Positions 10,055-12,173 of a stretch of 64,000 bases of DNA are shown here, piece by piece. The stretch comes from Dictyostelium discoideum (Eukaryota). A program made the position numbers and the translations under genes. The notes under the pieces are model-generated. The model worked only from the letters and a program-made list of their open reading frames with translations, searched no databases and was not told where the DNA came from. Each line of letters starts with the position of its first letter. Within the stretch, counting starts at the first letter, position 1. The DNA lies in NCBI GenBank assembly GCA_000004695.1, contig CM000152.2, positions 1,696,001 through 1,760,000 of the forward strand, given 5' to 3'.

Positions 10055-11306
10055 GGCTGCTTTACTACTACAACAGCAACAACAGCAAGCTGCTCAACAA
10101 GCCGCTTTACTTCAACAGCAACAACAACAACAAGCTGCTCAACAAGCTGCTGCTCAACAAGCTGCTCAACAAGCTCAGCAAGCTGCTTTACTTCAACAAC
10201 AACAACAAGCTGCTCAACAAGCTCAGCAAGCCGCTTTACTTCAACAACAACAACAAGCTGCCCAACAAGCCCTGCTCCAACAAAAACAACAAGCTGCTGC
10301 TCAACAAGCTCTACTCCAGCAACAACATCAACAAATTCAAAATATGAAAAATCAACAAGCAACTTCACCTCAATCACCATTATCAGGAGTACCACACCAT
10401 AATCAAATTACCCTACAACAACAACAACTACTACAACAACAACAACTACAACAACAGCAGCAAGCCCAGCAACAGCAACAACAGCAACAACAACCTAATC
10501 AACAAATGAGTCAAGGACAACATCCAGTCCCTCAACCAAATCAATTTGCAATGGCAAAACCACCAATTCAAAATCCACAACCCCATTTAATACCAAACCC
10601 ACAACAACCATCCGTACCAAATCCTCATGGCGCCAGTGTCGCTTCACCCCAAACCCCTTCTACAATTCAACAACATTTCCAAAAGAATCATGCTGCGCTT
10701 GCTCAAAATAATGCAAATATCAACACAAACTCACAACAACAAGCGGCACTTAAACAACAGGCTACAAACATTTCATTACAAATCTCTCAGCAACAACAAG
10801 GAAGTCCTCAACAATTGCAATTAATGCAACAACAACAAATGGTACTTTCCCAAATTACTCAATTGCAGCAACAACACACTAAACTTACTCAAACCCATAA
10901 TTATCTTCAACAACAAACTCAATTTCTTATTCAACAATTACAGTTACATCAACAACAACAACAACAACCACAACAACAAAACCAACAACAACAGCAACAA
11001 AACCAACCACAACAGCAACCACAACCACAACCACAACCTCAACCACAACCACAACCACAACCACAACCACAACCACAACCACAACCACCACAACAACAAA
11101 ACCAAAACCAACCACAACAGCAACCAAACCAACCAAACCAACAAATAACAAATCAACAAGTAAATCAACAACAGAATCAACAAATGTCTTTGAATGCTTT
11201 ATTACAACAGTTGCAACAACTTCAACAACTAAGCCAACAAGGTCAATTAACACCACAACAAATTCAACTACAGCAACAAATTATATCACAACTACAACAG
11301 AATTAA
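8066..11306 (+). CDS. med16: MED16-like protein, exon 4: conserved C-terminal Cys4 module ([35 protein letters not shown]) followed by a >700-aa Q/N/P-rich tail; contains the 100-N gap 9907-10006
   Basis: Splicing 7971 to 8066 is in frame with no stop ([26 protein letters not shown]...). An N-terminal WD propeller plus C-terminal Zn-ribbon-like CxxC...CxxC is the MED16 architecture. The frame after the gap cannot be tied to the frame before it. The post-gap frame (that of ORF 10344-11306) runs to TAA at 11304-11306. Confidence 0.4.
9907..10006. other. Assembly gap (100 N)
   Basis: Exact N100 inside the MED16-like poly-Q coding tail. Confidence 1.
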
Positions 11307-12044
11307 ATTCAGCAACACCAACGCCAACAACTAAATCAACAACAACAACAAAATCAACAACAAAATCAACAACAAAATCAACAACAAAATCAACAACAAA
11401 ATCATCAAAATCAACAAAATCATCCAAAAACCCAACCACAACAAAATCAAAATCAAAATCAACAATTCCAACAAAATCAACAAAATCAAAATCAACAAAA
11501 TCAACAAAATCAACAAAATCAACAAAATCAACAAAATCAACAAATAAATCAACAATTAAACCAACAACAGCAGTTTTTTCAAATGATACAAAATCTTAGA
11601 ACAACTGACCCACAGCGTTATGAGCAATTGAGACAGCAACAATTACAATTACAACAACAGCAACAACAGCAACAACAACAGCAACCACAACAACCACAAC
11701 CTCAACAACCACAACAACCACAACAACCACAACAACCACAACAACCTCAACAACCACAACAGCAACCTCAACAAAACCAAGTTCCCCAACAATTCCAACA
11801 GTTCCGTCCACAGCAACTCACTGTTCAACAAATACAACAGTTGCAGCAATTTCAACAACAACAGCAACAGCAACAACACCAACCAACCCAACAACAATTT
11901 CAATTAACTCCTCAACAAATCCAACAATTCCAACAACTAAATCCACAACAAGCTTTTCAATTACAACAACAATTGCAACAACAACAGTTGCAACAGCAAC
12001 AACAACAACAACAACAACAACAACAAAACCAAAATCCACAATAA
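11307..12044 (+). other. Q-rich open frame continuing the MED16-like tail in the same frame after a single TAA
   Basis: Frame 0 is open from 11307 to TAA TAA at 12042-12047. It carries the same LTPQQIQ(L/Q)FQQL motif as the upstream tail, and only one stop codon separates the two. Confidence 0.3.
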
Positions 12045-12173
12045 TAAAAGTGTACATAAATTATTTATTCATTCTATTGATTATTAATAAATAAAAATAA
12101 AATTAAAAAGACTGAGAATCTATTTTTGTTTTAAATAATATTATTTTTTTTTATTTTATATTAAAAAAAGAAA

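Follow-up and report, generated by a model that had tools for sequence, protein, structure and literature searches.

The in-frame TAA at positions 11304-11306 of the window, by which we mean the entire 64,000-nucleotide stretch of chromosome 3 of the Dictyostelium discoideum AX4 reference analyzed here, is very probably an error in that reference. The true sequence at this site would be CAG ATT AAA ATT, which the reference gives as CAG AAT TAA ATT, and the gene that appears to end there would instead continue through a single med16 terminal exon of ~4.16 kb to the TAA TAA at 12042-12047. We infer that the discrepancy arose in base calling or finishing rather than by mutation in the sequenced clone. 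In either case, the TAA does not constitute a biological feature; it is almost certainly a reference artifact and, failing that, no more than a variant private to the clone that was sequenced. Our literature search found no report of this site.

A long open frame follows the TAA

The TAA is in the frame with codon starts at multiples of 3, where it is preceded by ...IISQLQQN, and this frame remains open for 245 codons (735 nt, 11307-12041) past the TAA until it reaches the double stop. The first-pass annotation had described both the TAA and the continuing frame, and both are confirmed. The 4-kb frame to which it referred corresponds to exon 4 (8066-12041, 3976 nt), a length that includes 100 N at 9907-10006. 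Because these N lie inside the exon, continuity of the frame across them is not demonstrable from the window alone.

The other two frames over the 735-nt stretch contain 7 and 3 stops. In-frame extensions after other stops in the window, counted for ORFs outside CAA tracts, are 0 to 25 codons long, making an extension of 245 codons an extreme outlier. Because the DNA is CAA rich, however, openness by itself is not strong evidence; ~4% of shuffles of the 735 nt that preserve dinucleotides lack a stop in a given frame, so that openness alone is weakly significant. The codons after the TAA match the upstream tail in codon-position composition and in the codons that are preferred. It had also been observed that segments free of CAA are in frame after the TAA, and this was borne out, as the nonglutamine islands there are indeed in frame. 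Reuse of the motif LTPQQIQ had been pointed out as well. QLTPQQIQ does occur both before the TAA (11241-11300) and after it (11898-11969), but composition-corrected BLASTP detected no significant similarity between the two halves. The recurrence is thus not evidence of duplication, and we rejected duplication of the QLTPQQIQ segment.

The interrupted gene is a med16 ortholog

The exons upstream of the disputed site splice into one open protein (Table 1). Dictyostelid orthologs were recovered in a full HMMER scan against 1.84 billion representative proteins, among them Cavenderia fasciculata XP_004362024.1, annotated as "putative mediator complex subunit 16" (phmmer E value, 2.5e-37). The Pfam domain Med16_bridge (PF20718) matches at 6409-7970 (E value, 2.7e-06; 27.9 bits versus a cutoff of 24.1). 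A C2-C2 zinc finger, CIRCHR...CPICGGKWK, is encoded at 8777-8875 and is conserved in orthologs P0001 and P0003; a C-terminal C2-C2 zinc finger has been described for MED16 (PMC2475620). Similarity to the dictyostelid orthologs in tblastn stops at 8875. Pfam gave no WD40 match in exon 1, and the N-terminal region aligns to the dictyostelid MED16 orthologs. Judged from these matches, the gene is clearly med16, the ortholog of the annotated C. fasciculata MED16.

Word-index protein searches with the zinc finger region, the X-masked tail, and the clean bridge region returned no matches; the index is apparently unable to reach such eukaryotic proteins or is swamped by low-complexity words. Exact look-up in the protein collection of the 153-, 320-, 432-, and 245-aa ORFs, the 658-aa aconitase ORF, and the 333-aa neighbor likewise gave none, and the reconstructed 2304-aa and 1532-aa MED16 models were absent from the collection as exact strings.

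Table 1. Features at the med16 locus, in window coordinates
Feature	Positions	Strand	Evidence or description
med16 exon 1	5022-5981	+	ATG at 5022; uninterrupted spliced protein; tblastn match to dictyostelid MED16 orthologs P0001-P0003
med16 exon 2	6059-6260	+	GT/AG boundaries; ortholog matches
med16 exon 3, with Med16 central bridge domain	6377-7971	+	Pfam PF20718; boundaries of spliced model
Intron after exon 3	7972-8065	+	GTAAGT...TATAG; ~91% A+T (measured over 7971-8075)
med16 exon 4, portion upstream of the gap, with the C2-C2 zinc finger (8777-8875) and the beginning of the Q/N-rich tail	8066-9906	+	
Assembly gap, 100 N inside exon 4	9907-10006	.	L001 has 279 frame-keeping nt instead
med16 exon 4, continued: Q-rich tail up to the disputed site	10007-11300	+	Open frame; collinear with L001 at 99.4% identity
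Apparent stop, AAT TAA (Asn-stop)	11301-11306	+	ATT AAA (Ile-Lys) in L001-L006; TAT AAA in L007
Last 245 codons of med16 tail, coding	11307-12041	+	Inside a single annotated gene in 7 genomes; purifying selection
Reference-only differences	11318-11324	+	CAC, CGC (His, Arg) in window; CAA, CAG (Gln, Gln) in L001; poly-Gln in relatives
Second reference-only cluster	11421-11444	+	HPKTQPQQ in window; HQNQQFQQ in L001 and wild strains; net length change zero
Island A, FFQMIQNLRTTDPQRYEQLRQQQLQ	11574-11648	+	Protein identical in D. discoideum, D. cf. discoideum, D. citrinum, and D. firmibasis; 1-6 synonymous and 0 nonsynonymous codon changes
Island B, QNQVPQQFQQFRPQQLTVQQIQQLQQFQQ	11772-11858	+	Codon-change comparison; invariant positions
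Island C	11898-11969	+	Codon-change comparison; invariant positions
Predicted true med16 end, TAA TAA	12042-12047	+	Followed by AT-rich 3' flank; AATAAA at 12043, 12086, and 12096
Cytoplasmic aconitase gene DDB_G0279159, 5 exons, convergent with med16	12174-15261	-	Spliced product exactly matches XP_641837.1 (D. discoideum AX4)

Other genomes have sense codons at the TAA site

The aconitase gene served as the anchor for fetching the med16 locus, as 22 to 24 kb around the gene, in seven genomes, here called L001 to L007. The 90% cluster of this aconitase includes aconitases from recent long-contig genomes, namely, those of other D. discoideum assemblies, D. cf. discoideum, D. citrinum, D. firmibasis, and D. 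dimigraforme. L001 is chromosome CM142509.1 of assembly GCA_054883475.1, L002 to L006 comprise two wild D. discoideum strains, D. cf. discoideum, D. firmibasis, and D. citrinum (L006), and L007 is D. dimigraforme. In all seven, the gene convergent with aconitase is one med16 model of 2301 to 2409 aa that ends ~110 to 150 nt from the aconitase stop. In the L001 annotation, med16 is one gene of 2304 aa, and 129 nt separate its end from the aconitase stop; because this is exactly the distance between 12044 and 12174 of the window, the annotated gene ends at the distal TAA TAA.

Comparison with orthologous Dictyostelium loci had been put forward as a check in the first-pass annotation. Run on the seven genomes, it revealed a sense codon at the TAA site in every one: no stop is present at the codons homologous to window 11301-11306 (0 of 7). 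The reference reads CAG AAT TAA ATT CAG CAA CAC CAA CGC (N * ... H ... R), versus CAG ATT AAA ATT CAG CAA CAA CAA CAG (I K ... Q ... Q) in L001. The codons ATT AAA (I K) are also found in the two wild D. discoideum strains, D. cf. discoideum, D. firmibasis, and D. citrinum, and D. dimigraforme has TAT AAA (Y K). AATTAA in the reference and ATTAAA in L001 consist of the same letters, with one A shifted across TT; in the longer context, the alternative readings at the site are CAGAATTAAATT and CAGATTAAAATT. The window states across 11290-11450 include CAGAATTAAATT and CACCAACGC. No match to the junction sequence, written with Y in place of the stop, was obtained in a metagenome scan.

The fetched loci also differ in their neighboring genes. 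At 8653-11977 of the D. citrinum locus, aconitase is annotated as a 658-aa protein with a separate 314-aa gene just upstream, which looks like a split model of the 894-aa enzyme. A CfaA_B_C-family gene (PF11912) near aconitase is present in three tandem copies in D. dimigraforme (3005-8423 of that locus) and in one copy in the other six genomes.

Differences from a near-identical assembly are clustered

Across window positions 2353-9906, L001 shows 2 mismatches and no indels in 7554 nt, and 19076-24957 is 100% identical (5882 nt). The two other D. discoideum assemblies are 91 to 95% identical to the window, with many repeat-length differences. Given its near-identity, L001 probably shares the AX4/NC4 lineage of the window. 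At the gap in exon 4, the 279 in-frame nt of L001 encode more HTPQQ and QAALLQ repeats. Because this fill keeps the frame, the postgap sequence belongs to med16, in agreement with the earlier assignment of that stretch to a MED16 tail.

The substitutions that separate the window from L001 lie at the edges of this gap (9835, 9866, and 10034), in two clusters within med16 (11302-11324 and 11425-11439), and in two further clusters (17837-17968 and 18412-18451), the latter of which is upstream of the second gap. In med16, two differing bases at the TAA site and ~12 others amount to ~14 differences within 140 nt. A second pair of alternative readings, CATCCAAAAACCCAACCAC and CATCAAAACCAACAATTCC, falls within 11250-11480. 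The reference states in the two med16 clusters (N*, H, R, and HPKTQP) are found in no relative, and the wild strains have the same states as L001. On this comparison, the clusters look like low-quality stretches of the reference, and 11421-11444 is probably another patch of bad base calls. The TAA would thus fall within one such patch of the 2005 reference, a brief region of poor sequence that lies ~1.3 kb away from an assembly gap.

AATTAA versus ATTAAA amounts to a pair of homopolymer-length changes, and long-read assemblies also make homopolymer-length errors. Two observations answer this objection: six additional, independent assemblies are in agreement, and the nearby differences are of a nonhomopolymer type. 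Neither med16 cluster alters net length. This is a little surprising if the errors are random, although spacing is usually retained in Sanger base calls of low quality.

Outside med16, the window has two further gaps of 100 N each (18976-19075 and 40771-40870), and L001 fills the first of these with 441 nt. The cluster at 17837-17968 lies in an AT-rich region away from any gap, and either the window or L001 may be at fault there. The same is true of the long A/T homopolymers whose lengths differ at 14758, 17528, 17909, and 18085. A second CAA-rich ORF at 18927-20885 is broken by a 100-N gap; no lone in-frame stop like that of med16 was seen in it, and its long "extensions" are alternative frames of the same CAA-rich tract.

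The sequence after the TAA is conserved as protein

Three islands that are not Q rich lie downstream of the TAA (Table 1), and their codon changes reveal selection on the protein. Between D. citrinum and L001, islands A to C have 12 synonymous and 0 nonsynonymous changes in 74 codons, and between D. firmibasis and L001, islands A and C have 11 and 0, respectively, in 45 codons. The neutral expectation in D. discoideum is ~3.3 nonsynonymous changes to 1 synonymous change (PMC7466956). Judged by the absence of nonsynonymous changes against this ratio, the sequence after the TAA is coding and under purifying selection, and it is neither a 3' untranslated region (UTR) nor a second gene.

In the D. 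discoideum species group, the tail as a whole (window 8876-12041), which follows the zinc finger, comprises ~1,080 to 1,255 Q-rich residues. Of its nonglutamine positions, 203 of 546 are invariant among the seven genomes; the invariant islands include HTPQPIHSTPTQHPHTPQP, AKPP.Q..., and FFQM.QNLRTTDPQR, and the repeats between islands differ freely in length. The med16 gene ranges from 7202 to 7539 nt among D. discoideum assemblies, a variation that fits the repeat variability reported for D. discoideum (PMC3460934). Only ~75 to 100 residues follow the zinc finger in C. fasciculata MED16 and in the dictyostelid protein P0001, so the long tail is a lineage-specific expansion. In our model, the terminal exon would encode, after the zinc finger, a glutamine-rich and presumably disordered tail of ~1,100 residues containing short non-Q-rich islands that selection has kept across the D. 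discoideum group, three of them after the false stop. Such a tail may serve the Mediator tail module as a disordered region for interactions.

Alternatives to a reference error

Three explanations had been offered for the TAA without a choice among them. A sequencing error is the one that our comparisons favor, a separate Q-rich gene is contradicted by them, and a nonsense mutation is tenable only if it is private to the sequenced clone. In this last form, a real nonsense allele would cut 245 residues from MED16 in the AX4 clone and would be too recent for the downstream sequence to have decayed. The TAA is, after all, in the deposited sequence, and the downstream frame is intact despite 170 single-base routes to a stop, as it would be if the event were very recent or had never occurred. 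However, the near-identical L001 assembly has a sense codon at the site. The change is also not a single CAA-to-TAA transition, since the two base differences are accompanied by the ~12 others nearby and the resulting residues are found in no relative. The base-substitution rate in D. discoideum is 2.5e-11 per site per generation (PMC7466956), and at this rate a laboratory clone is not expected to acquire ~14 genuine changes clustered in 140 nt. We therefore regard a private nonsense allele as very unlikely, and a little more doubtful still is the specific proposition that the AX4 stock sequenced in 2005 truly carried AAT TAA. If it did, laboratory AX4 would have a MED16 that lacks the 245 C-terminal residues and, with them, three motifs that show strict conservation throughout the species group, and this would provide a natural test of whether those motifs can be lost during axenic growth.

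Alternatively, ribosomes might bypass a real TAA by programmed readthrough at a useful rate, yielding short and long MED16 isoforms. Conserved in-frame sequence downstream of a stop is the classic comparative signature by which readthrough genes are found, and the sequence after this TAA is both in frame and conserved as protein. A possible cause of readthrough in Dictyostelium has been proposed as well, namely, ERF3 aggregation (PMC11537047). Under this explanation, however, the stop itself should be conserved, yet each of the seven genomes has ATT AAA or TAT AAA in its place. The context of the stop, TAA-A (TAA ATT CAG CAA), is neither UGA-C nor stop-CAR-YYA, and TAA-A is a strong termination context. 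A tRNA scan found no tRNA gene in the window and hence no local suppressor tRNA. The sequence following the TAA consists of G-poor CAA repeats, which offer few base-pairing partners for RNA structure, and our literature search found no documented natural readthrough gene in Dictyostelium. We consider readthrough highly improbable.

The possibility that med16 ends at 11306 and that an independent Q-rich gene begins at the ATG at 11583 has a negligible likelihood. An ATG-initiated ORF of 153 aa does exist at 11583-12044, but the interval between 11307 and 11582 contains no AT-rich intergenic or promoter sequence, and conservation extends upstream of that ATG (e.g., QQFFQ). Moreover, one uninterrupted gene of 2301 to 2409 aa spans the region in all seven other genomes, and the 153-aa sequence matches no protein on record by exact look-up.

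Equally hard to credit is an overlooked intron, for which GTAAAT at 11160 and CAG at 11310-11312 would form a frame-preserving GT...AG pair (11160-11312, 153 nt) whose removal would eliminate the TAA: this candidate falls short of a Dictyostelium spliceosomal intron, for which an A+T content of at least ~85 to 90% is expected together with a donor resembling GTAAGT and an AG acceptor. Its A+T content of 69% resembles that of the surrounding exon rather than the 91% of the gene's real intron, it contains a conserved coding motif, and no intron is needed once the stop is gone.

Implications for the AX4 gene model

With a reference error as the preferred explanation, the main value of these results lies in curation of the AX4 gene model. 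The med16 model in the reference would be broken in three places, namely, the gap, the false stop, and the scrambled stretch at 11421-11444. The true MED16 product would be ~2,300 aa long, and users of the AX4 reference would obtain a truncated tail or split models, with consequences for knock-ins, proteomics databases, and surveys of prion domains. Substitutions clustered near gaps in CAA-rich exons may mark other false stops in the reference. A more modest biological point is the greatly lengthened MED16 tail of the D. discoideum group, in which short motifs are under strong purifying selection.

Comparison with known systems

The window gene shares the Med16 bridge domain (PF20718) and the C-terminal C2-C2 zinc finger with MED16 (Sin4/TRAP95), a subunit of the Mediator tail module. 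In the MED16 proteins of the more distant dictyostelids examined, the tail is more than 10 times shorter than in the D. discoideum group. With the Q/N-rich prion-like tracts of the D. discoideum proteome, the tail has in common CAA-encoded poly-Q and NQ repeats of strain-variable length, and it is unlike them in that strictly conserved nonrepeat motifs are embedded in it.

The long, conserved in-frame extension after the stop resembles the readthrough extensions of Drosophila hdc and kelch and of yeast genes, the latter reportedly treated by Namy and colleagues in 2003. Unlike in those genes, the med16 stop is present in no other genome and its context is not leaky. The closer parallel is with in-frame stops that result from errors in draft or early Sanger references, with which med16 shares a single stop in a conserved ORF, proximity to a gap, and clustered discrepancies. 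Like the TAA of med16, reference-error stops elsewhere are absent from a same-lineage reassembly and from all relatives. Compared with these known cases, there is nothing unusual about med16, and its CAA-rich context makes the broken frame easier to spot.
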